Source of the DNA: a virus
Taxonomy: Duplodnaviria; Heunggongvirae; Uroviricota; Caudoviricetes
DNA: 64,000 nucleotides
Direction: 5' to 3' (one strand)
IMG/VR virus record: IMGVR_UViG_3300021963_000036
Within the stretch, counting starts at the first letter, position 1; every line of letters begins with the position of its first letter. A model generated the notes under the pieces. The model was not told the origin of the DNA, did not search any database, and was given only the letters and a program-made list of their open reading frames with translations. A program made the translations under genes and the position numbers. Below are positions 54,999 through 64,000 of the stretch, piece after piece.

Positions 54999-56704
54999 TT
55001 TATTTTACTGAGGTTCGTTACAAGAATATCCTTTCAACTGGAAACACTTGGAACGTAATCAATTTGAACCGAAACAAGTCTACACTGATTGTCGGCGAGA
55101 ATGGTGCTGGAAAGTCAACCATTCTCGACGCAATCTCATTTGCATTGTATGGTAAAGCTTTTCGCAAGATTAACAAACCACAGTTGATGAACTCTATCAA
55201 TCAGCGTGATCTGATGGTGGAAGTATCATTCACATCGAATGGTACTGATTACGTAATCAAACGTGGTATGAAACCTAACATTTTTGAGATTTGGAAGAAC
55301 AACGAACTCCTAAACCAAGATGCATCTTCGCGCGATTACCAAGCTTATCTCGAAGAGAATATTCTCAAGATGAACTACAAGTCATTTGGTCAAGTAGTTG
55401 TACTAGGTAGTTCTACGTTTGTTCCTTTCATGCAACTTCCAGCTCAGCATCGCCGCGAAGTGATCGAAGATCTTCTTGATATTCAGATCTTCAGCACAAT
55501 GAACAACTTGCTGAAAGAGAAGGTGTCAACTAACAAGACTGATACAACTGAAGTCAAGTACCAGATTGAACTGATTAAGAACAAAATCGAAGCTGCAAAA
55601 GAGCATAATGAGTCTATTCGAAAACTCAAAGAAGACGAGGTTCTTCGGGTAAAAGAAAAGATGAGAGAAAAGATCACTCTCATTGAATCAGAAGAGAAGC
55701 TTTCTGACGCTCTTGATGAAGAGATTACAACACTAATTTCTACAATCGAAGATAAACAGGACTGTAAGACTAAATTCGAAAAATTCAAAGGTATCAAAAA
55801 CGATCTTGATACAAAACTTCTTGCTCTGCACAAAGAGGTAAAATTTTATGATGCGCATGATAACTGTCCAACATGCAAGCAAGGGATCGAGCACGAATTT
55901 AAAGCATCGACCATTGGTGAAAAGTCTGGGAAAATTTCTGAAATCGAAGACGCCTTATTGGTCCTTAGTGAAAAAATCTCAAAGGCTTCAGCACGGCTCG
56001 ATGAAATTTCCGAAACCGAGTCAAAACTACATGGACTCAGTCTACGTCGAAATGATCATACTGCGAACATACGAATCGCAAAGTCGGCGCTTGTTGGACT
56101 TAAAAAGGAACTTGACGATGCTGAGAAATTTGCATCTGAAATCGACACCGCGAAAATTGACGGATATCAAGAAGAACACCGGGCGTTAGTAGTTCATCAG
56201 AAGTCATTGCATGATGATAAAGAAACGCTTGCTATAGTTAGTTCTATGTTGAAAGATGGTGGTATCAAAACCCGTATCATCAAACAATACGTTCCCATCA
56301 TGAACAAACTAATCAATAAATACCTCGCGGCTATGGACTTCTTTGTTGACTTTCAACTCGATGAGAGTTTTAATGAGAAGATCCTAAGCCGTTTCCGAGA
56401 TGAGTTTTCTTATTCTTCGTTCTCTGAAGGAGAGAAGCTTCGTATCGACCTCGCTCTTATGTTCACATGGAGAGCAGTATCTAAACTTCGTAACTCAGTA
56501 ACAACAAACCTTCTTATTATGGATGAAGTACTTGACGGCTCACTCGACCAAGCTGGTACAGATGAGTTTTTGAAGATCATCAACGAACTGACCGCAGACT
56601 CGAACGTGTTCATCATCAGTCATAAGGGTGATCAATTATACGACAAGTTTGATCATGTAATCAAATTTCAGAAGGTAAAAAACTTTAGTCATATGGCTGC
56701 ATAG
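54995..56704 (+). CDS. gp46: Recombination ATPase, Rad50/SMC-like
   Basis: GENGAGKST, CPTC zinc hook, FSEGEK, MDEVLDGSLD, ISH. Confidence 0.95.
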   Translation: MIYFTEVRYKNILSTGNTWNVINLNRNKSTLIVGENGAGKSTILDAISFALYGKAFRKINKPQLMNSINQRDLMVEVSFTSNGTDYVIKRGMKPNIFEIWKNNELLNQDASSRDYQAYLEENILKMNYKSFGQVVVLGSSTFVPFMQLPAQHRREVIEDLLDIQIFSTMNNLLKEKVSTNKTDTTEVKYQIELIKNKIEAAKEHNESIRKLKEDEVLRVKEKMREKITLIESEEKLSDALDEEITTLISTIEDKQDCKTKFEKFKGIKNDLDTKLLALHKEVKFYDAHDNCPTCKQGIEHEFKASTIGEKSGKISEIEDALLVLSEKISKASARLDEISETESKLHGLSLRRNDHTANIRIAKSALVGLKKELDDAEKFASEIDTAKIDGYQEEHRALVVHQKSLHDDKETLAIVSSMLKDGGIKTRIIKQYVPIMNKLINKYLAAMDFFVDFQLDESFNEKILSRFRDEFSYSSFSEGEKLRIDLALMFTWRAVSKLRNSVTTNLLIMDEVLDGSLDQAGTDEFLKIINELTADSNVFIISHKGDQLYDKFDHVIKFQKVKNFSHMAA

Positions 56705-56712
56705 GAGGTAAG

Positions 56713-56925
56713 ATGACAACCTGGAACGAAACTCATGACGACACATTTGTGGCACCTCAGCGATACAGACACAAGAAAACTGGTGGAGTTTATCAAGTGT
56801 TGTTCGAAGGATTAGAAGTAACTGGTGACGAAGGTGTTCCTTCTGTTGTATACCAAAGTGGTAATGGTCAGGTTTTCATTCAGACGAAGTCAAGATTCGA
56901 AGACGGGAGATTTGAAAAGCTATGA
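56713..56925 (+). CDS. DUF1653-like small protein
   Basis: RYRHKKTGGVYQVL...VVYQ...RFE. Confidence 0.55.
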   Translation: MTTWNETHDDTFVAPQRYRHKKTGGVYQVLFEGLEVTGDEGVPSVVYQSGNGQVFIQTKSRFEDGRFEKL

Positions 56926-57077
56926 CATTTGAAAAAATCCAAGAGAAGATCAAGAGTCTAACTGAACGAATCCACGTTCTAGAAGCTGAACGTGCGAACG
57001 AAAAGTACATACTACCTTTATATGTAGAACTCAGCACACTCCTTGACAAGATTCAAAAGGCACAAAGATTACCGTGA
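56922..57077 (+). CDS. Small coiled-coil hypothetical protein (51 aa, absent from the ORF track)
   Basis: MTFEKIQEKIKSL...RLP, with 4-nt overlaps at both ends. Confidence 0.5.
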   Translation: MTFEKIQEKIKSLTERIHVLEAERANEKYILPLYVELSTLLDKIQKAQRLP

Positions 57078-57775
57078 ACAGATACATATTTGATGTTGAT
57101 GGAACCCTTACACCATCACGAGAATCGATAGATAAAGACTTTGAACAATGGCTCATAGAGTTTTGTACTAAGAACAAAGTCTATATTGTAACCGGAAGCG
57201 ACAAGCATAAGACTATCGAACAGTTAGGCCAGAAGATCTGGTCGTTAGCACAAACTGTTTATCAGTGTTCAGGTAACGATGTTTGGATAGATGGTAAGAA
57301 CGTTCGAGTGAATACGATGCATCTCTCTAAAGAGATGGAGCAATTCTTCCATAACTGGCTTGAATCAAGTTCATACCAGACGCGTACTGGGCAGCACGTT
57401 GATATTAGACCTGGTCTGATTAATTTTAGTATAGTTGGACGAGGCGCTACAAAATCTGAGAGAGCTGATTATGTGAAGCATGACATATCGACTTTCGAGA
57501 GAATCAACATAGCTGAAGCTTTCAATAAGCAATTTGGTAAAGACATGGTTGCTCAAGTTGCAGGCGAAACTGGTCTAGACATCATAATGAAAGGTCGCGA
57601 TAAGTCACAGATCATACACGACTTCAGTCCACACGACAAACTGTATTTCTTCGGTGACAAAATGCAGCCAGATGGTAATGACTATACACTCGCTATAGAA
57701 GTTGCTAATTCTGGTGGAAATATTTACTATGTAAAGGATTGGAGAGAAACATGGGAACATCTGAAAAAACTATAG
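57074..57775 (+). CDS. HAD-IIB hydrolase, phosphomannomutase (eukaryote-type PMM)-like
   Basis: FDVDGTLT, GSD..K..EQL, INFS..GR.A...ER, FFGDK...GNDY. Confidence 0.7.
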   Translation: MNRYIFDVDGTLTPSRESIDKDFEQWLIEFCTKNKVYIVTGSDKHKTIEQLGQKIWSLAQTVYQCSGNDVWIDGKNVRVNTMHLSKEMEQFFHNWLESSSYQTRTGQHVDIRPGLINFSIVGRGATKSERADYVKHDISTFERINIAEAFNKQFGKDMVAQVAGETGLDIIMKGRDKSQIIHDFSPHDKLYFFGDKMQPDGNDYTLAIEVANSGGNIYYVKDWRETWEHLKKL

Positions 57776-58185
57776 GGTTTACTGCATCTACATTTGACCT
57801 TCTCCATGCAGGTCATATATCGATGTTGAGAGAAGCAAAGACGCAGTGTGATTACCTCATCTGCGGATTACAAGTCGATCCTTCGATTGACAGACCAACG
57901 AAGAACAAACCGGTGCAGACTCTCGTCGAAAGACACGTTCAGCTTTCGGCTGTAAGCTATGTCGATGAAATCGTTCCTTACGTCACTGAAGAAGATTTGG
58001 TTGACATTCTGAGTATGTATGATATAAATGTAAGGATACTCGGCGACGAGTACAAAGACAAAGACTTCACTGGCAAAGACGTGTGTCAAGCCCGTGGAAT
58101 TGACCTGTACTTCAACAAACGTGATCATCGGTTCAGTAGTTCCGGATTGCGTAAACGTATTTTCGAAATGGAGAAATCTAAATGA
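57739..58185 (+). CDS. Cytidylyltransferase (TagD-like)
   Basis: FDLLHAGH (HxGH), YVDEI, LGDEY, R...SSS..R. Confidence 0.8.
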   Translation: MERNMGTSEKTIGFTASTFDLLHAGHISMLREAKTQCDYLICGLQVDPSIDRPTKNKPVQTLVERHVQLSAVSYVDEIVPYVTEEDLVDILSMYDINVRILGDEYKDKDFTGKDVCQARGIDLYFNKRDHRFSSSGLRKRIFEMEKSK

Positions 58186-58628
58186 GTGAGAACTGGGTAC
58201 AAGACATCAATGATATGCATGCTAAGTTTGGTGTGCACAAGTGGGTAGCACAGAAAGTCGCCGAACGTGATTATGAGTCACTCCGTAAGTTTATGCAGTT
58301 TCGTGTTAACTTCTTAAAGGAAGAACTGAAAGAGACTTCTGACGCTTTTTGGTTGAGTCAAGATGGTTCTGAACGTGTTATCGATCCAGAAGAAATCGTG
58401 GATGGTCTGATCGATCTTTGTGTTGTTGCCATTGGAACTCTTGATGCTTTTGGCGTTGACGCCCACAAAGCTTGGGATGCAGTACACGCAGCTAACATGA
58501 GTAAAGAACCCGGCGTGAAGCCTTCTCGCCCGAATCCGCTTGGTCTGCCTGATCTGATCAAGCCTGAAGGTTGGACTGCACCTTCGCACGAAGGTAACTA
58601 TGGCGACATTGATATGTTGGGTGCCTGA
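58182..58628 (+). CDS. MazG/PRA-PH-like NTP pyrophosphohydrolase
   Basis: EELKE...EIVDGLIDL...AWDAVHAANMSK...DLIKPEGW. Confidence 0.7.
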   Translation: MSENWVQDINDMHAKFGVHKWVAQKVAERDYESLRKFMQFRVNFLKEELKETSDAFWLSQDGSERVIDPEEIVDGLIDLCVVAIGTLDAFGVDAHKAWDAVHAANMSKEPGVKPSRPNPLGLPDLIKPEGWTAPSHEGNYGDIDMLGA

Positions 58629-58659
58629 AAAATAATTGCGAAAAAGTGCATTTTGCCTA

Positions 58660-58688
58660 TTTACACTAGCTGCGTCTTTGTATATAAC
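58660..58688 (+). promoter_or_regulatory. Early sigma70-type promoter
   Basis: TTTACA-N17-TATAAC with an upstream A-tract. Confidence 0.6.
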
Positions 58689-58723
58689 TAACTAGTAAGG
58701 CAAAACAAAGCAAGGTAGAGAAA

Positions 58724-59086
58724 ATGACCAAGTTCGCAAAATTCGATCGTAAGAACCTCACCGCTCTTCGTGACGAAATGAGCGCTCTCTTGAGCAAATA
58801 CGGTGTTGACACGAACATCAACTTTGAAGTCGGTAACATGAAGTTCAGCGAAAACGAAGTTGAGATCAAAGTCAAAGCGAAAATCGTCGGTGCCAAAAGC
58901 TTCACTAACGTCATCCTTGAGTCTCGTGTAGCTGCTCTCGGTTTGAAGCTGAAAAACGCTCTCGGTGATGAACTCGTAGATTACAATACGAAAGCTTACA
59001 AGATGCCCTTCGTCTATCTCAACGCTCGCGACGGTAAGCGTTACAAGTGTGACGAACGTACCGCACAAATTCGGTTCGCAGCTTAA
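58724..59086 (+). CDS. Hypothetical early protein
   Basis: 120-aa ORF after a promoter and RBS. Confidence 0.65.
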   Translation: MTKFAKFDRKNLTALRDEMSALLSKYGVDTNINFEVGNMKFSENEVEIKVKAKIVGAKSFTNVILESRVAALGLKLKNALGDELVDYNTKAYKMPFVYLNARDGKRYKCDERTAQIRFAA

Positions 59087-59093
59087 ATAATGA

Positions 59094-59124
59094 AAAAGAG
59101 GGGTTGACAATCTTCCCCTCTTTT
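59094..59124 (+). terminator. 10-bp inverted repeat (terminator-like) with TTGACA in the loop
   Basis: AAAAGAGGGG-TTGACAATCTT-CCCCTCTTTT. Confidence 0.55.
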
Positions 59125-59158
59125 GTTATATCTAACTAGAGCAAACAATAGGTATATC

Positions 59159-59404
59159 ATGACTCGCACTCAAAACTATCGTTATACTGTCAAAATGAAA
59201 GACGGTAAACCTGTCGGCTGTGACCTCTCGATGGTAACTGCCCTTCGTCAATTTGTTTCATTTCTGAACAAATCGAACGGTTCAAAACTTTACGTTAAAC
59301 TTCAAGGTCGTGGCCCTCGTAAGGTGAACGGCCGCAAATATTTTCAATCACTTCCGCTCAAATTTGCAGAAACCGCTGACGTTTACGTGTACGAACGGTA
59401 TTAA
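59159..59404 (+). CDS. Hypothetical basic protein
   Basis: ATG at 59159; LYVKLQGRGPR...DVYVYER. Confidence 0.6.
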   Translation: MTRTQNYRYTVKMKDGKPVGCDLSMVTALRQFVSFLNKSNGSKLYVKLQGRGPRKVNGRKYFQSLPLKFAETADVYVYERY

Positions 59405-59412
59405 GGAGTTGT

Positions 59413-59988
59413 ATGTCATTATGTAAGACGCCGCAAACAGTTACTTTTACATTAACTGAAGAGCAAAAATCCCATATTCAAACTATGGCTGAAGGGATTC
59501 ACGGTTGTCCTATTAGATCGCGCAGAAGAAATTTCGACGCGATCTATAAGTCTGTGAAGAACGGTGCTATCCTCGAGTTCGCTCTAGTTGAACAAGGAGC
59601 AGTCAAGAACGAAGCCGAGTTCGATCATACCAACCCATTGTCGTATTGCTGGGATGTGTTCTGGGATGGGCAACGCGCAGAAGTCAAATGCTTCTATTTC
59701 GACTCATCAATGTCGTGGGTAACGTTCCCTTTGAGGTTTGTACAGACCTTCATCAATACCACTAAGCGCGGCAAAAATCTTGTTGACATTATCATCTTTG
59801 GATACTATGATGAAACTCCAGAAGGTGTGATCACCGCCAAGTGGCGACTGATCGCGCCGAGTGATACATTCGCGAGCAAACTTCGAAAGTGTAACACACA
59901 ATACAAAAGTAGTTATGACTCTTTCACAGGTGAGTTGAAGTATTTCTATTCTCATCCATCTGAACCAAGGGCAATATTCATTAAGTGA
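59413..59988 (+). CDS. Hypothetical protein, possible PD-(D/E)XK nuclease
   Basis: AAGGAG RBS; E...WDV...AEVK arrangement. Confidence 0.35.
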   Translation: MSLCKTPQTVTFTLTEEQKSHIQTMAEGIHGCPIRSRRRNFDAIYKSVKNGAILEFALVEQGAVKNEAEFDHTNPLSYCWDVFWDGQRAEVKCFYFDSSMSWVTFPLRFVQTFINTTKRGKNLVDIIIFGYYDETPEGVITAKWRLIAPSDTFASKLRKCNTQYKSSYDSFTGELKYFYSHPSEPRAIFIK

Positions 59989-59994
59989 GGCACA

Positions 59995-60324
59995 ATGAAA
60001 TACGATAAAGGTAAACCCAAAATTCATCTAGTTCCACCAGAAGCAATTTATGCCATCGCTTCTGTCTATGGTTTTGGCGCAGAAAAATACGGTGAAAACA
60101 ACTGGCGTAAGGACATTCATAAGTATCCTTACTCGAGACATTACTCGTCTATTATGCGTCATATGCTAGCGTTTCATTCTGGTGAAGATACTGATCCAGA
60201 GTCTGGACTTCCTCACCTTGCACATGCAATGACTCAGATGATGATCCTTTACATGACCACTCTTGAAGCTCCTGAGATGGATGATAGATTTAAAGCGGAG
60301 AACGATGATGCAGAAAGTAAGTGA
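59995..60324 (+). CDS. DUF5664 / dATP-dGTP diphosphohydrolase-like protein
   Basis: KYDKGKP...FGAEKY...NW...RH...GEDTDPESGLPHLAHA. Confidence 0.75.
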   Translation: MKYDKGKPKIHLVPPEAIYAIASVYGFGAEKYGENNWRKDIHKYPYSRHYSSIMRHMLAFHSGEDTDPESGLPHLAHAMTQMMILYMTTLEAPEMDDRFKAENDDAESK

Positions 60325-60973
60325 TATTCGGGCTAAGCTCATTCAACAATACAAAGATCAAGAGTTTGTGACTGACAAAACTGGCGTGAAGACTATCGAG
60401 TTGATCGGTGAGTCTTTCATCGCTGACGAAGATGCTATCTTTGGTAAAGTCAACTGGGATTATGTTCAGCGTGAACTCGATTGGTATAAGTCGATGTCTT
60501 TGAATGTGAACGGCATTCCAGGCGGTGTAAAGCAAGAGACAAATCCTCCTCAGATCTGGATGACTGTTGCTGATACCGAAGGCTTTATCAATTCTAACTA
60601 TGGTTGGGCGATCTGGTCCGATGATAACTGTAATCAATATGAACATTGTGTTGCTGAACTGAAAAAGAACCGCGACTCTCGTCGTGCAATCATGATCTAC
60701 ACTCGTCCGCAGATGTGGTATGATTATAACAAGAATGGTCGTTCTGACTTCATGTGCACAAATTCTGTTCAATACCTCGTTCGTAACGACAAGGTTCATG
60801 CAGTTGTTCAGATGCGTTCGAATGATGCTATCTTTGGCTACAAAAATGATCGCGCATGGCAAGATCACGTTCTGCGTGAAGTTGCTCGTGAAACCGGATA
60901 TGGAGTCGGTGACATCATCTGGAATGCCGGATCACTTCACATCTATGAACGCCACTTTGGATTAGTTGAATGA
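60305..60973 (+). CDS. gp42: dCMP hydroxymethyltransferase (thymidylate synthase fold)
   Basis: INSNYGW, RRAIMIYTRP, SDFMCTN, MRSNDAIFGYKND (Asp at the dCMP-specificity position), GSLHIYERHF. Confidence 0.8.
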   Translation: MMQKVSDIRAKLIQQYKDQEFVTDKTGVKTIELIGESFIADEDAIFGKVNWDYVQRELDWYKSMSLNVNGIPGGVKQETNPPQIWMTVADTEGFINSNYGWAIWSDDNCNQYEHCVAELKKNRDSRRAIMIYTRPQMWYDYNKNGRSDFMCTNSVQYLVRNDKVHAVVQMRSNDAIFGYKNDRAWQDHVLREVARETGYGVGDIIWNAGSLHIYERHFGLVE

Positions 60974-61422
60974 ATAAGTGGGATCACCGCTATCTCAAGC
61001 TCGCGTATGGAGTAGCGCAATGGTCGAAAGACCCATCGAGTAAGATCGGTGCTGTTACAGTTGGAGCTAAAGGACAAGTTTTGTCCCAAGGCTTCAACGG
61101 CTTTCCTCGTGGTCTGAAAGACGACTTCACTCGTTTGAACGATCGTGAAACAAAGTACAAGTTTATCGTTCATGCTGAGATGAATTGCATTTACAACGCA
61201 ACATATAATGGTGTATCGCTAGACGGTGCAACTCTCTATGTCTATGGCCTTCCGATCTGTTCTGAATGTGCCAAGGGTGTTATTCAAGTTGGGATCAAAC
61301 GTGTTGTCATGCCTAAGCAAGAGATGCCTGAAAAGTGGCGAGACTCTTGGATGACGAGTATGAACTTCTTTGACGAAGCAGGAGTAGACTTTGACTTCAT
61401 CGATTTTGATCCTCGGGATTAA
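60970..61422 (+). CDS. cd: dCMP deaminase
   Basis: SKDPSSKIGAV, GFNGFPRG, HAEMN, PICSECAK. Confidence 0.88.
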   Translation: MNKWDHRYLKLAYGVAQWSKDPSSKIGAVTVGAKGQVLSQGFNGFPRGLKDDFTRLNDRETKYKFIVHAEMNCIYNATYNGVSLDGATLYVYGLPICSECAKGVIQVGIKRVVMPKQEMPEKWRDSWMTSMNFFDEAGVDFDFIDFDPRD

Positions 61423-61756
61423 TCCTTCGAGTGGTCGGCCAAACAAGACGAGTGCAACCATCCAGCGGCTCAATCGCTGGATGGACACTCTAGGATTCAT
61501 TCACTATTCATTCACAAACGTGATACATACTACGGGCAAGTACCGACCAGAACTTGTAGACCTAGATACAATTAAGCTATTCTCTGAAGGATATGAGAAG
61601 GTGATTGCTCTTGGCCCCTTTGTTTCAAAATCACTAAATAGAGCACACATCAACCACTTTACACTTCCGCATCCGTCACCTCTGAATCGACAGTTGAACG
61701 ATAAGACGTTTGAGCAAGACTGTCTGATGAAGTGTAAATCATATCTAGAGGAATAA
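61391..61756 (+). CDS. Uracil-DNA-glycosylase-like fold protein
   Basis: ILGINPS...SFTNV...VIALG...LPHPSPLN. Confidence 0.5.
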   Translation: MTSSILILGINPSSGRPNKTSATIQRLNRWMDTLGFIHYSFTNVIHTTGKYRPELVDLDTIKLFSEGYEKVIALGPFVSKSLNRAHINHFTLPHPSPLNRQLNDKTFEQDCLMKCKSYLEE

Positions 61757-61757
61757 T

Positions 61758-62618
61758 ATGCAAGTACTTGTAACTGGCGCAGCAGGCTATATTGGCTCTC
61801 ACGTTGTAAAAGCTCTATACAATCGAGGTTATACTGTAGATACGCTTGATCGAGCGATTACAACTAACAGCGAAGTAATACAGCATATGGTACGGCACAT
61901 GTACCACGGTAATATCATTGAACGTATGATAATCGACGTACGTTACGACGCAGTAATTCATTGTGCTGCACTCATATCTGTAGAAGAATCGATGCGGCTT
62001 CCTCTCGTGTATTACGAAGTAAACACTGCTGGAACGCTTAAGCTTCTGCAGGAACTGAAGTACGACCACTTCATATTTGCATCGACCGGTGGTGCGTTTG
62101 ATCCTATTTCGCCTTATGCTAAATCAAAGATCATTGCTGAAGAAGCAGTTCGACAGATTGCTCCTAAGTATTCTATCTTTCGATTTTTCAACGTTGCCGG
62201 AAATGATGGTCAACTGAGACAACCATACCCAGCAAGTCATATCATCAGAATTGCGGCAGAAGTTGCTGCTGGAAAACGTGATAAGATGGTAATCTTTGGT
62301 AATGATTACGACACTCCTGATGGCACATGCATACGTGACTATGTTCATGTCGTTGACCTCGCCGAAGCAATCGTTAGAAGCGTACCTCTTCCAGCAAATT
62401 CAAACTATGAATGTATCGGTTCCGGTTCAGGATTCTCTAATCTTGACATCATAAATACCATGAAGGAAGTAACCGGCATGAACTTCCCTGTAGAATTCGG
62501 TCCAAGACGTTCTGGAGATCCAGCTAAACTTTTAGTTGACACTGTATCAAAATATGTTAAGATCGATCATGACTTGAGAGATATGTGCCGCTCAGCATAC
62601 ACTATGGAGTTGAAATGA
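61758..62618 (+). CDS. galE: NAD-dependent sugar epimerase, GalE-like
   Basis: TGAAGYIGSH, YAKSK (YxxxK), FRFFNVAG, DGTCIRDYVHVVDLA, RRSGDP. Confidence 0.8.
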   Translation: MQVLVTGAAGYIGSHVVKALYNRGYTVDTLDRAITTNSEVIQHMVRHMYHGNIIERMIIDVRYDAVIHCAALISVEESMRLPLVYYEVNTAGTLKLLQELKYDHFIFASTGGAFDPISPYAKSKIIAEEAVRQIAPKYSIFRFFNVAGNDGQLRQPYPASHIIRIAAEVAAGKRDKMVIFGNDYDTPDGTCIRDYVHVVDLAEAIVRSVPLPANSNYECIGSGSGFSNLDIINTMKEVTGMNFPVEFGPRRSGDPAKLLVDTVSKYVKIDHDLRDMCRSAYTMELK

Positions 62619-63718
62619 AAAAAATTCTAATCACCGGTATGAACCGGTTGCAATGCAATAAAGACTTCTATCTGAAGCAGCAGTTGCAAGTTGTCCCTTC
62701 TCATTATTCAGTGATTCGTTGTCTTGAAGACATGAACTATGAAGTAGAGCAACGTGACGTTACTCTTGGAGAAGACCTATCTGCTTATGACGAAGTGATC
62801 GTCTATATCCACAGTATTCAAGCGTTCTGCCAACATATTTGGTCTGGCTTGTACGCTGTTGCTGCTCGCCCTAACTGCATCATCGCATTTGATGATTGGC
62901 AATTTAACCAGATCTATGGCGCAATTCAAACGTATCACGATGACCTAGTTGCTGGTGATGAGTCCGTTTATCGCGACTATCTATTTGATCTATGGGCAGG
63001 TAAAGAAGATCGTGATACTGTTAAGAAGTATCATCAGTCATATATTGACGCTTGTAAAATCATCGTGTCAAAACAGAACCGTCTATTGGTGAGTGCCTTC
63101 TCAGGTGGTGATATTTCGCTATTGAACCTTGGCTGGGAAGACTCCAAAATTCACGTGTTTAATCCAAACCCTTATCACCTGAACCGTCGAGCTGATAACG
63201 GATATGGCACTGGTCAGATTGTATCTACAATCGATTCACTTTTTGGTGACGAAGAAGAAAAGACGTTCCGTTGGAATTTTGCTTCGCTGGTTCAAGAAAA
63301 GACTCGCAAGTGGTTGAAACTTCAGAATCCAGAAAAATGGAAATGGGAAATCGAGTACTTCGGTGCTAAGCGCGGTAAGTATAAATCAGAGCGTAAGACA
63401 GAACCTGATATGGTTAAAGTGTTTGAACAACAATGGGGTTGTCTGATGCCGGGTTACTTCCATGCCGGTTCTGGCTGGTGGAGAGCACGCCCACTTCAAG
63501 TTGCCGATGCTGGATCGATTATTATTGGTGACATTCCCGAGATGATGGTATACTATAAGGATGAGTCCATTGCTAAACTGCGCGTGCAGGATATTGAAGC
63601 GATGGATGTTACTCAGCTGAAAGCTACTGCTGCAGCTCAGAAAGAAGCATTGTATGCTACTCATCCTCTTAATAAAGCAGTTCAACGTGAAGAACTGAGA
63701 AAGATCCTCGAAGCATGA
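62615..63718 (+). CDS. Putative GT-B DNA glycosyltransferase
   Basis: Sits between the epimerase and the mutase in the gp42 cluster. About 367 aa, with a YFG...R segment and C-terminal RARPLQVADAGS. Fold call is inference only. Confidence 0.4.
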   Translation: MKKILITGMNRLQCNKDFYLKQQLQVVPSHYSVIRCLEDMNYEVEQRDVTLGEDLSAYDEVIVYIHSIQAFCQHIWSGLYAVAARPNCIIAFDDWQFNQIYGAIQTYHDDLVAGDESVYRDYLFDLWAGKEDRDTVKKYHQSYIDACKIIVSKQNRLLVSAFSGGDISLLNLGWEDSKIHVFNPNPYHLNRRADNGYGTGQIVSTIDSLFGDEEEKTFRWNFASLVQEKTRKWLKLQNPEKWKWEIEYFGAKRGKYKSERKTEPDMVKVFEQQWGCLMPGYFHAGSGWWRARPLQVADAGSIIIGDIPEMMVYYKDESIAKLRVQDIEAMDVTQLKATAAAQKEALYATHPLNKAVQREELRKILEA

Positions 63719-64000
63719 AACAAATTCTCGTAGTTGGCGCTGGCTTGTCCGGCGCCACTATTGCTCGTGAACTTGCAGAGACTGAGCAATATAAAGTCTG
63801 GATATTTGATAAGCGCAATCACGTCGCGGGAAATGCTTATGACTACACAAACATTCATAACATCAGAGTGCATGAATACGGCCCGCACTTGTTCCATACA
63901 AACAATGTAGAAGTGTACAATTACCTCAGTAAATTCACAGAGTGGGTTGAGTATAAGCACAAGGTCAAAGCGCAACTTGATGATGGTCGGCACGTTACTC
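63715..64000 (+). CDS. glf: UDP-galactopyranose mutase; 3'-truncated, absent from the ORF track
   Basis: MKQILVVGAGLSGATIARELA...DKRNHVAGNAYD...VHEYGPHLFHTNN.EVY.YLSKFTEW..Y.HKV. Confidence 0.88.
   Translation, partial: MKQILVVGAGLSGATIARELAETEQYKVWIFDKRNHVAGNAYDYTNIHNIRVHEYGPHLFHTNNVEVYNYLSKFTEWVEYKHKVKAQLDDGRHVT

Follow-up and report, generated by a model that had tools for sequence, protein, structure and literature searches.

A run of overlapping genes at the end of a 64-kb stretch of DNA (IMG/VR record IMGVR_UViG_3300021963_000036; here, the window), which is part of an uncultured T4-superfamily myovirus, very probably makes glycosylated 5-hydroxymethylcytosine (5hmC) DNA. The sugar next to the base would be galactofuranose (Galf), placed by a glycosyltransferase (GT) of the GT-B fold; we put the probability of this reading at about 0.6. 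That phages evade restriction enzymes and CRISPR by coating hydroxymethylcytosine with sugar is textbook knowledge. A sequence-only reading of this DNA had proposed that its cytosine carries galactofuranosyl- or arabinofuranosyl-5hmC. The galactofuranosyl interpretation is supported as far as computation reaches, by the active-site signature of the hydroxymethylase, the predicted fold of the transferase, and the recurrence of the transferase genes with makers of hydroxymethylated bases.

The gene run and the base it would make

The window is contained in the ENA contig ERZ27296343 k141_1539590 (129,563 bp). A locus taken from this contig, L004, overlaps the window and reaches 9.7 kb beyond its end (window position = L004 position + 52614), so that 74 kb of the source phage were examined in all. 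The run sits in the replication-gene region, between gp46 and gp45, and within the window it consists of the following genes:

59413..59988, + strand: candidate DenB-like endonuclease IV, 191 aa, first gene of the run (weak match to phrog_1360, E 7.5e-5)
59995..60324, + strand: MazG-like all-alpha NTP pyrophosphohydrolase, 109 aa (PF18909, E 5e-32; phrog_801, E 1.4e-39)
60308..60973, + strand: T4-type dCMP hydroxymethylase, 221 aa (PF00303; PDB 1b5d/1b49)
60970..61422, + strand: dCMP deaminase, 150 aa, counterpart of T4 cd (PF00383, E 6.6e-19; phrog_174, E 2e-43)
61391..61756, + strand: small protein resembling the uracil-DNA glycosylase (UDG) superfamily, 121 aa, TTG start (PF03167, E 2.2e-4, below cut-off)
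61758..62618, + strand: GalE-like epimerase of the short-chain dehydrogenase/reductase (SDR) type, 286 aa (TIGR01179, 233.7 bits; PF01370, E 3.7e-36)
62615..63718, + strand: GT-B glycosyltransferase, 367 aa (phrog_14998, E 3.6e-27; predicted fold)
63715..64000, + strand: UDP-galactopyranose mutase (Glf), residues 1-95 of 336 (TIGR00031, E 1.1e-27; PF13450, E 3.9e-18)

From the denB-like gene at 59413 through glf, the intergenic gaps are 6, -17, -4, -32, +1, -4, and -4 nt, and translational coupling across the run is real. A scan of positions 56500-64000 found no + strand terminator inside the run, and the 21 sigma-70-like promoter matches in the same interval are not above expectation (15.1 +/- 4.0 in shuffled sequence). 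Profile and PDB matches place all six genes named by the sequence-only reading (from the hydroxymethylase to the mutase) on the + strand where it had put them. The coupling that it described is likewise borne out, with overlaps or gaps of a few nucleotides from 59413 to the end of the window.

The hydroxymethylase is a homolog of thymidylate synthase (TS; PF00303, E 1.3e-17) that matches the structures of T4 dCMP hydroxymethylase (PDB 1b49/1b5d) over residues 18-235 with an E value of 4.4e-83. It shares ~60% identity with many T4-like gp42 orthologs and only 27% with RB69 gp48. In its motifs SDFMCTN and MRSNDAIFGYKND, the equivalents of ThyA L143/C146/D169/N177 are D/C/D/D, the same combination as in T4 gp42, whereas RB69 gp48 has E/C/N/D at these four positions. 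An Asp in place of ThyA N177 confers dCMP specificity, and an acidic residue in place of L143 admits water to the methylene intermediate (PMC13326640). The TS homologs of RB69, DLP3, Shewanella phage Thanatos, and Rhizobium phage RL38J1 make 5-hydroxy-dCMP, not 5-hydroxymethyl-dCMP, and an Asn where E. coli ThyA has D169 is the diagnostic residue of such synthases (PMC13326640).

At the D169 equivalent, the window protein has Asp (MRSND, versus Asn in MRSQN of RB69 gp48). Because of this residue, and of the signature and similarity shared with T4 gp42, 5hmC is the predicted base; judged from its sequence, synthesis of 5-hydroxymethyl-dCMP by the window protein is strongly supported. The proposal of an Asp-type dCMP hydroxymethylase therefore holds, with the T4 signature complete, the catalytic Cys kept, and the D169N change absent. 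Assignment of the protein to the 5-hydroxy-dCMP synthases (RB69 gp48 or DLP3 gp80 type) was considered and ruled out, given Asp rather than Asn at D169. The T4 signature is found in all 71 of the 71 TS homologs adjoining related GTs in IMG/VR, and likewise in the TS homologs of Aeromonas phage 25, Erwinia phage FBB1, and actinophage DSL-LC01. The statement of the sequence-only reading that RB69-type phages arabinosylate a modified cytosine stands as regards the modified cytosine, but the base underneath is 5-hydroxycytosine and not 5hmC (PMC13326640).

The glycosyltransferase and its probable sugar donor

Profile scans assigned the 367-aa protein to no Pfam or NCBIfam family. Its own family is large, with at least 670 homolog clusters (90% identity; E 1e-3 or better), nearly all unnamed, and matches in 256 IMG/VR stretches. 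An AlphaFold2 model computed from a 40-sequence alignment (pLDDT 91, pTM 0.89) has the two-Rossmann-domain GT-B fold. When this model was compared with the PDB in Foldseek, ranks 1-5 were all T4 beta-glucosyltransferase (BGT; 1qkj/1j39 first, E 2e-7 to 4e-6). VIA-align also placed T4 BGT first (1c3j, Z 16.6, root mean square deviation of 3.7 A, 293 residues aligned), with T4 alpha-glucosyltransferase (AGT) third (Z 15.4) and the DNA glycosyltransferase of phage HY126 at Z 13.3. A structure prediction of the product of the gene at 62615 against T4 BGT had been suggested as a check, and its outcome is a GT-B fold whose best match among solved structures, in Foldseek and VIA-align alike, is T4 BGT; nothing that could overturn the proposal in silico, such as a fold other than GT-B, came to light.

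Invariant residues of the family include D93-D94-W95-Q96, which follow the strand at 89-91, as well as N183/P184/N185/P186, R191, K216, R260, E263, and the motif G287-W-W-R290-x-R292. Profile comparison in hhalign of the window GT-B with T4 AGT or with ORF225c of Aeromonas phage 25 gave no significant result. BLASTP found no match between the window GT-B and gp50 or gp52 of the RB69 arabinosylation cluster, and no Rhizobium phage was among its tblastn matches. From fold, synteny, and co-occurrence, we infer 5hmC in duplex DNA as the acceptor of the GT-B.

The genes on either side of the GT-B gene would provide its donor. Upstream, the GalE-like SDR scores 233.7 bits with TIGR01179, short of the equivalog cut-off of 262.3, and because of this shortfall its substrate can be named only tentatively. 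The protein has 286 aa against the 332 positions of the model, and it carries GAAGYIG at residues 7-13 (GxxGxxG) and YAKSK at 120-124 (YxxxK). The next family reaches at most 144 bits and the next unrelated one, heptose epimerase, 63 bits; a heptose reading of the SDR was rejected on this comparison (63 bits versus 234 for GalE).

Downstream, the part of Glf inside the window covers positions 3-92 of TIGR00031, and the full gene (336 aa) lies at L004:11101-12111, ending at window-equivalent 64725. The glf gene that had been read from the N terminus at 63715-64000 is thus present, and complete on the source contig. The full protein matches PF03275 (E 5.1e-56, positions 2-203 of 203), PF13450 (E 4e-17), and PDB 3hdq (E 1.4e-76). 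Aligned to the latter, the UDP-galactopyranose mutase (UGM) of D. radiodurans, it keeps the FAD motif together with RVPxR, YQAMP, LPYRS, FYPV, and GR..Y.Y. Its TIGR00031 score of 290.3 bits does not reach the equivalog cut-off of 303.75, and the low score goes together with the loss of ~35-40 residues from the helical domain (residues 104-110 of the query versus 130-170 of 3hdq); the alignable substrate-binding motifs are retained. With 336 aa, as in its counterpart from the Kyanoviridae phage C48C1, the phage Glf is shorter than the solved bacterial UGMs (367-399 aa), and, to judge from its sequence, it seems to be a compact viral UGM. Genes for the synthesis of UDP-xylose or UDP-arabinose were not seen in the window or L004; since none was found, the arabinofuranose alternative of the sequence-only reading is left without specific support.

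Conservation of the gene pair and its neighbors

Besides the run, the window encodes a T4-type major head protein, portal, sheath, large terminase, UvsW-like helicase, gp55, gp47, and gp46. Its major capsid protein shares ~70% identity with those of Sinorhizobium phages phiN3/phiM12 and 63-68% with those of T4-like phages of Methylophilales and Pelagibacter. A megablast search with the window as the query found no near-identical DNA among GenBank phages; nine metagenomic contigs carry the exact GT-B protein.

We examined gene order in the 80 best IMG/VR loci related to the window GT-B, which are the base of all counts out of 80 given here. A gp42-type TS gene is located upstream of the GT-B gene in 72 of them, often immediately, and glf lies directly downstream in 49/80. 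The gp42-GT-Glf arrangement is non-random. In T4, beta-gt likewise directly follows gene 42.

Loci with glf (Glf-plus) and without it (Glf-minus) were then contrasted in a non-redundant set of 42 (22 Glf-plus and 20 Glf-minus), in which pairs were matched according to how far their flanking TS and methyltransferase genes had diverged. At matched divergence, mixed pairs fall 10-16 points short of same-class pairs, of either class, in GT-B identity; these pairwise-identity statistics are not phylogenetically independent. In the reference bin 0.60-0.65, it is 0.538 for mixed pairs, 0.695 when both loci are Glf-plus, and 0.624 when both are Glf-minus; the corresponding values in the bin 0.65-0.70 are 0.560, 0.728, and 0.664. 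The GT-A glycosyltransferase encoded farther downstream (see below) has no such deficit (0.653 for mixed pairs in the bin 0.60-0.65, versus 0.613 for Glf-plus and 0.725 for Glf-minus pairs). Ten positions cleanly separate Glf-plus from Glf-minus GT-B proteins, with clusters at 22-28, 188, and 282-294, and these class-specific positions adjoin the invariant S29, N183-P186/R191, and G287-R292. Exchange of the genes as a cassette could give the same pattern of GT-B divergence; whether by divergence or by cassette exchange, GT-B and Glf behave as a unit.

The GT-Glf pair, with a 4-nt overlap or in direct adjacency, occurs in four unrelated phage lineages:

Lineage 1: this marine T4-like clade, with a gp42-type TS
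Lineage 2: Aeromonas phage 25 and many relatives, and Erwinia FBB1 (Straboviridae); Glf then GT, beside motA, with a gp42-type TS
Lineage 3: the PolA-encoding actinophage DSL-LC01; GT then Glf, within replication genes, with a gp42-type TS
Lineage 4: the Kyanoviridae phage C48C1; a TET/JBP dioxygenase gene immediately upstream of the GT gene

This recurrence of GT-Glf beside or together with makers of 5-hydroxymethyl-pyrimidines in unrelated phages supports the DNA-modification reading. Cultured carriers are Aeromonas phages 25, Aes508, and phiAS4, Erwinia FBB1, and actinophage DSL-LC01; the Aeromonas relative 44RR lacks both GT and Glf. A profile search for the downstream GT-A, run without a positive control genome, found no homolog in C48C1, FBB1, DSL-LC01, or phage 25, which leaves the GT-B as the sole candidate user of UDP-Galf in these four genomes.

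In C48C1, TET/JBP, a GT-B homolog (34% identity), and Glf are encoded by consecutive overlapping genes (L001:6598-10045; OQ984149.1, 49583-53030). This genome has no TS homolog and, like those of Aeromonas phage 25 and FBB1, no PF00145-type C5-cytosine methyltransferase (C5-MTase). The arrangement suggests galactofuranosylation of thymine-derived 5-hydroxymethyluracil (hmU), a base-J-like chemistry with a furanose. In DSL-LC01 (OQ999401.1; L096:4878-8499, and L105), ~14 kb of the replication module hold the GT-B homolog, Glf, a 329-aa protein without assigned function, a dimeric-dUTPase/MazG-like gene, a C5-MTase, and the TS homolog with the T4 hydroxymethylase signature. Pfam scanning of the genes around GT-Glf yielded, for phage 25, DSL-LC01, and C48C1 together, nothing further than the dimeric-dUTPase-like gene of DSL-LC01. 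The C5-MTase of the actinophage is distantly related, is encoded ~4 kb downstream of the pair, and resembles the homolog on the window contig only at the level of generic motifs; a common origin of the MTase-beside-GT-Glf pattern is therefore not demonstrable.

Beyond glf, the order on L004 is C5-MTase homolog, Rv2179c-like exonuclease, a second MazG-like gene, a 310-aa protein, gp45, gp44, gp62, regA, a small heat-shock protein, and the DNA polymerase gp43. Two of these genes, both just past the window end and absent from the gene set of the sequence-only reading, and three genes upstream of the run may bear on the modification:

L004:12104-13306 (window-equivalent 64718-65920): C5-cytosine DNA methyltransferase homolog, 400 aa, overlapping the end of glf (PF00145, E 2e-20)
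L004:14408-15340 (window-equivalent 67022-67954): GT-A glycosyltransferase, 310 aa (phrog_1574, no Pfam family; predicted fold)
57074-57775, + strand: HAD-IIB/PMM-like protein (PF03332, E 5.6e-22)
57751-58185, + strand: RfaE-domain-II/TagD-like nucleotidyltransferase (PF01467, E 2.7e-11)
58182-58628, + strand: PRA-PH MazG-like pyrophosphohydrolase (PF01503, E 2.2e-8)

The C5-MTase homolog has the Pro-Cys, ENA, and QxRxR motifs and an N-terminal LIGGE, resembles M.HhaI (E 5e-6), and is conserved downstream of GT(-Glf) in 75/80 loci. For the GT-A, the top fold match is STIV A197 (E 7e-9), followed by collagen galactosyltransferases and Mimivirus R699. The protein has an invariant D82-x-D84 and is found in 63 of the 80 loci, just before gp45. 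Going by its modeled fold and its conservation, it probably transfers a second sugar to the DNA, and with two DNA-directed transferases probable, a disaccharide is possible.

The ends of the upstream trio overlap. Its TIGR02199 and TIGR01518 scores (74.8 and 67 bits) are both far under the cut-offs; the PMM-like and nucleotidyltransferase genes occur in 3-4/80 loci, the closest relatives only, and the PRA-PH gene in 38/80. The first two may form a second route to an activated donor (heptose, glycerol phosphate, or hexose), and the membership of the trio in the modification system is uncertain.

Three MazG-like all-alpha pyrophosphohydrolases are encoded on the 74 kb, at 58182-58628, 59995-60324, and L004:13938-14408. 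The gene at 59995-60324 shares 17 nt with the start of the hydroxymethylase gene; its product has no BLAST similarity to T4 gp56 and is a candidate dCTPase analogue. The DenB-like gene that precedes it has a further weak match on the source contig, to PF26887 (Phage_T4_End_IV). In a 92%-identical relative (L008), a 253-aa protein without assigned function (L008:5018-5779) and a Tmk-like gene lie directly upstream of the hydroxymethylase gene. The slot upstream of gp42 is exchangeable, since L008 carries these genes in place of the DenB-like and MazG-like pair. Searches with tblastn for T4 beta-gt and alpha-gt, RB69 gp45, and the Tmk-like and 253-aa open reading frames of L008 gave no match below E 0.03 in the window or L004.

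The dCMP deaminase retains its zinc-site motifs, HAE and CxxC (C-S-E-C). Between it and the sugar genes, the UDG-like protein falls short of the length of a canonical UDG. It scores 21.8 bits with PF03167 against a gathering threshold of 24.3, so that it falls outside the Pfam family; it also matches DUF1643 (E 2e-3) and contains the motifs GINPS and HPSPLN. In the nearest Atlas clusters, 20-27% of members carry PF03167, and a homolog is present in 36/80 loci. The motifs and the Atlas neighbors suggest a minimal UDG-like fold.

Mechanism, alternatives, and significance

Taken together, these genes would form a pre-replicative and post-replicative pathway of cytosine hypermodification in a T4-superfamily phage. 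The gp42-type enzyme would convert dCMP to 5-hydroxymethyl-dCMP, while the dCMP deaminase would balance the dTMP supply, like T4 cd. One of the three MazG-like pyrophosphohydrolases may remove dCTP; a kinase, not found here, would phosphorylate hm-dCMP, the phage polymerase would incorporate hm-dCTP, and the DenB-like nuclease would attack only cytosine-containing (host) DNA. To judge from their families, the GalE-like enzyme would turn host UDP-glucose into UDP-galactopyranose, and Glf would contract the ring to give UDP-galactofuranose. On duplex DNA, the GT-B would then link galactofuranose to 5hmC through the hydroxymethyl group, as fold, synteny, and co-occurrence suggest, yielding 5-(galactofuranosyloxymethyl)cytosine. 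More speculatively, the conserved GT-A, encoded five genes downstream of the GT-B, might add a second sugar. Phage DNA modified in this way would be expected to withstand restriction enzymes, CRISPR nucleases, and those type IV enzymes that are adapted to hmC or glucosyl-hmC.

Several observations weigh against this scheme. Both the donor and the acceptor of the GT-B are inferred. Ordinary GT4-type and other non-DNA GT-B enzymes reach Z 14-16 in VIA-align, nearly equal to BGT, and the GT-B fold alone is for that reason no proof of a DNA acceptor. Sequence homology to T4 BGT was not significant in hhalign with the 40-sequence profile (probability 5.2%, E 0.0074, 61 N-terminal columns), so the term BGT-like, as used here for the 367-aa protein, refers to fold and context and does not imply membership in the BGT family. 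A GalE-like homolog is present in just 16/80 related loci, and in 31/80 the GT-B lacks Glf and is directly followed by the next conserved gene; therefore, the GT-B family is not tied to Galf in every member, and hosts may be the source of UDP-Galf in the Glf-minus relatives. The contrast between Glf-plus and Glf-minus loci is weakened by the shared ancestry of the pairs compared. In fully hmC DNA, the C5-MTase homolog would be without a substrate. No homolog of the T4 gp56 dCTPase or the gp1 deoxynucleoside monophosphate kinase was found by tblastn in the 74 kb (no match below E 0.03), which, with ~55 kb of the contig outside the search, does not prove absence; complete replacement of cytosine is plausible yet unproven. 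Finally, the acceptor in C48C1 may be hmU and not hmC, because this genome has no PF00145 methyltransferase.

Among the alternatives, one keeps glycosylated 5hmC and has the GT-B add another sugar, either glucose or galactopyranose, as in T-even phages, or arabinofuranose made by Glf from UDP-arabinopyranose; galactofuranose would then be added second, by the GT-A, or be put to another use. Some UGMs do accept UDP-arabinose. This scenario would also account for the 31/80 relatives that keep GT-B and GT-A without Glf, it would suit two transferases with possibly two donor lines (GalE/Glf, and the PMM-like protein with the nucleotidyltransferase), and GT-A galactofuranosyltransferases exist, GlfT2 appearing at rank 50 of the GT-A fold matches. 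We nonetheless regard it as unlikely, although it deserves to be kept in view, given that the GT-B adjoins Glf where no GT-A homolog was found (phage 25, FBB1, DSL-LC01, and C48C1), that the extra divergence across the Glf-plus/Glf-minus boundary is in the GT-B and not in the GT-A, and that the window and L004 showed no gene for UDP-xylose or UDP-arabinose synthesis. A more elaborate version of the galactofuranosyl reading seems doubtful to us: here, the GT-B and then the GT-A would build a galactofuranose di- or oligosaccharide on 5hmC, and the enzyme of C5-MTase fold would be functional, not a leftover, either with a role in the hypermodification of hmC DNA through Pro-Cys covalent C6 chemistry or in a mixed epigenome of C, 5-methylcytosine, and glycosyl-hmC.

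It is also conceivable that GalE, GT-B, and Glf do not modify DNA at all, and serve virion protein glycosylation or the remodeling of host surface glycans (as auxiliary metabolic genes or for superinfection exclusion), their neighborhood of nucleotide genes being due to descent only. Many GT-B enzymes whose acceptors are not DNA reach Z 14-16 against the model, and most of the 80 loci belong to one related phage group, in which synteny is partly inherited. Against these points, a DNA glucosyltransferase is the top solved match in both aligners, the genes are coupled to gp42 and cd in the early replication region and not among late structural genes, and four unrelated lineages combine the pair with gp42-type or TET/JBP enzymes, C48C1 doing so in consecutive TET-GT-Glf genes; we consider this explanation quite improbable. 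Least credible of all is a 5-hydroxycytosine base with the sugar ether-linked directly to C5, as in RB69, DLP3, and RL38J1. It has in its favor that the sole published phage pathway invoking a phage Glf, that of RL38J1 (Pootjesviridae), uses 5-hydroxycytosine made by a TS homolog (PMC13326640). The Asp at the D169 equivalent of the window protein, where RB69 gp48 has Asn, and its ~60% identity to gp42 against 27% to RB69 gp48 speak strongly against it.

The closest mechanistic model for galactofuranosylated 5hmC is 5hmC glucosylation in T4, which involves gp42, cd, gp56, gp1, and the alpha- and beta-glucosyltransferases (PDB 1b5d, 1qkj/1j39/1c3j, 1y6f). The window shares with T4 a gp42 ortholog whose active-site signature is identical, a homolog of cd, a GT-B that best matches BGT structurally, and a GT gene downstream of the hydroxymethylase gene (42, then beta-gt, in T4) among T4-type replication genes. 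It differs in that comparing the transferase with BGT or AGT by sequence gives nothing significant, in the lack of detectable gp56 and gp1 homologs, in the additional GT-A and C5-MTase homologs downstream, and in donor enzymes of the phage's own, GalE-like and Glf, that point to UDP-galactofuranose over host UDP-glucose.

Arabinofuranose on 5-hydroxycytosine is established for RB69 and DLP3, and galactose followed by glucose on 5-hydroxycytosine was described for RL38J1, for which a phage UDP-galactopyranose mutase was invoked (Lee et al., NAR 2026, PMC13326640). As in these phages, a TS-family enzyme would modify dCMP before replication and phage NDP-sugar enzymes (Glf in RL38J1) would feed DNA glycosyltransferases; in contrast to them, the base enzyme of the window has the hydroxymethylase signature and not D169N, and its GT has no detectable similarity to RB69 gp50 or gp52.

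Metavirome 5hmC clusters combine a C5-MT and TET/5mYOX, or ThyS, with a GT and in some cases a sugar epimerase (Burke et al. 2021, PMC8256090; bioRxiv 10.1101/2023.12.21.572611), and epimerase-dependent GTs from such clusters were shown in E. coli to put hexose, N-acetylhexosamine (HexNAc), hexuronic acid (HexA), and heptose on 5hmC (bioRxiv 10.1101/2023.12.21.572611). The window resembles them in having a GT-B beside ThyS, dCMP deaminase, epimerase, methyltransferases, and gp45/clamp genes, and the C48C1 version of the GT-Glf pair resembles those linked to TET. Unlike the window system, the clusters of the latter study come without any mention of 'mutase' or 'furanos' (0 occurrences of either); ring contraction and a furanose on 5hmC would be new relative to them. 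A literature search for galactofuranose with hydroxymethylcytosine or hypermodification, or for an Aeromonas phage with UDP-galactopyranose mutase, found only PMC13326640, and none of the papers searched reports a furanose hexose on 5hmC. The novelty would thus lie in a new sugar and a new transferase family, acting on a known base by a known strategy.

The predicted chemistry would be widespread, but it adds only an increment to a paradigm that has been studied well. The presence of the gene pair in cultured phages makes the prediction directly testable, with 44RR as a natural control and DSL-LC01 as a cultured test system outside the T4 superfamily. To our knowledge, galactofuranose is absent from mammals, and a Galf-transferring DNA glycosyltransferase could for this reason serve 5hmC labeling. 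Naming this large GT-B family would annotate many environmental phages. If the reading is correct, a furanose hexose on 5hmC extends the chemistry of this base past glucose, gentiobiose, and the hexose, HexNAc, HexA, and heptose of the metavirome enzymes. The identity of the sugar decides which host defenses, whether type IV restriction, GmrSD/BrxU-type systems, or Cas nucleases, still recognize or cut the DNA.

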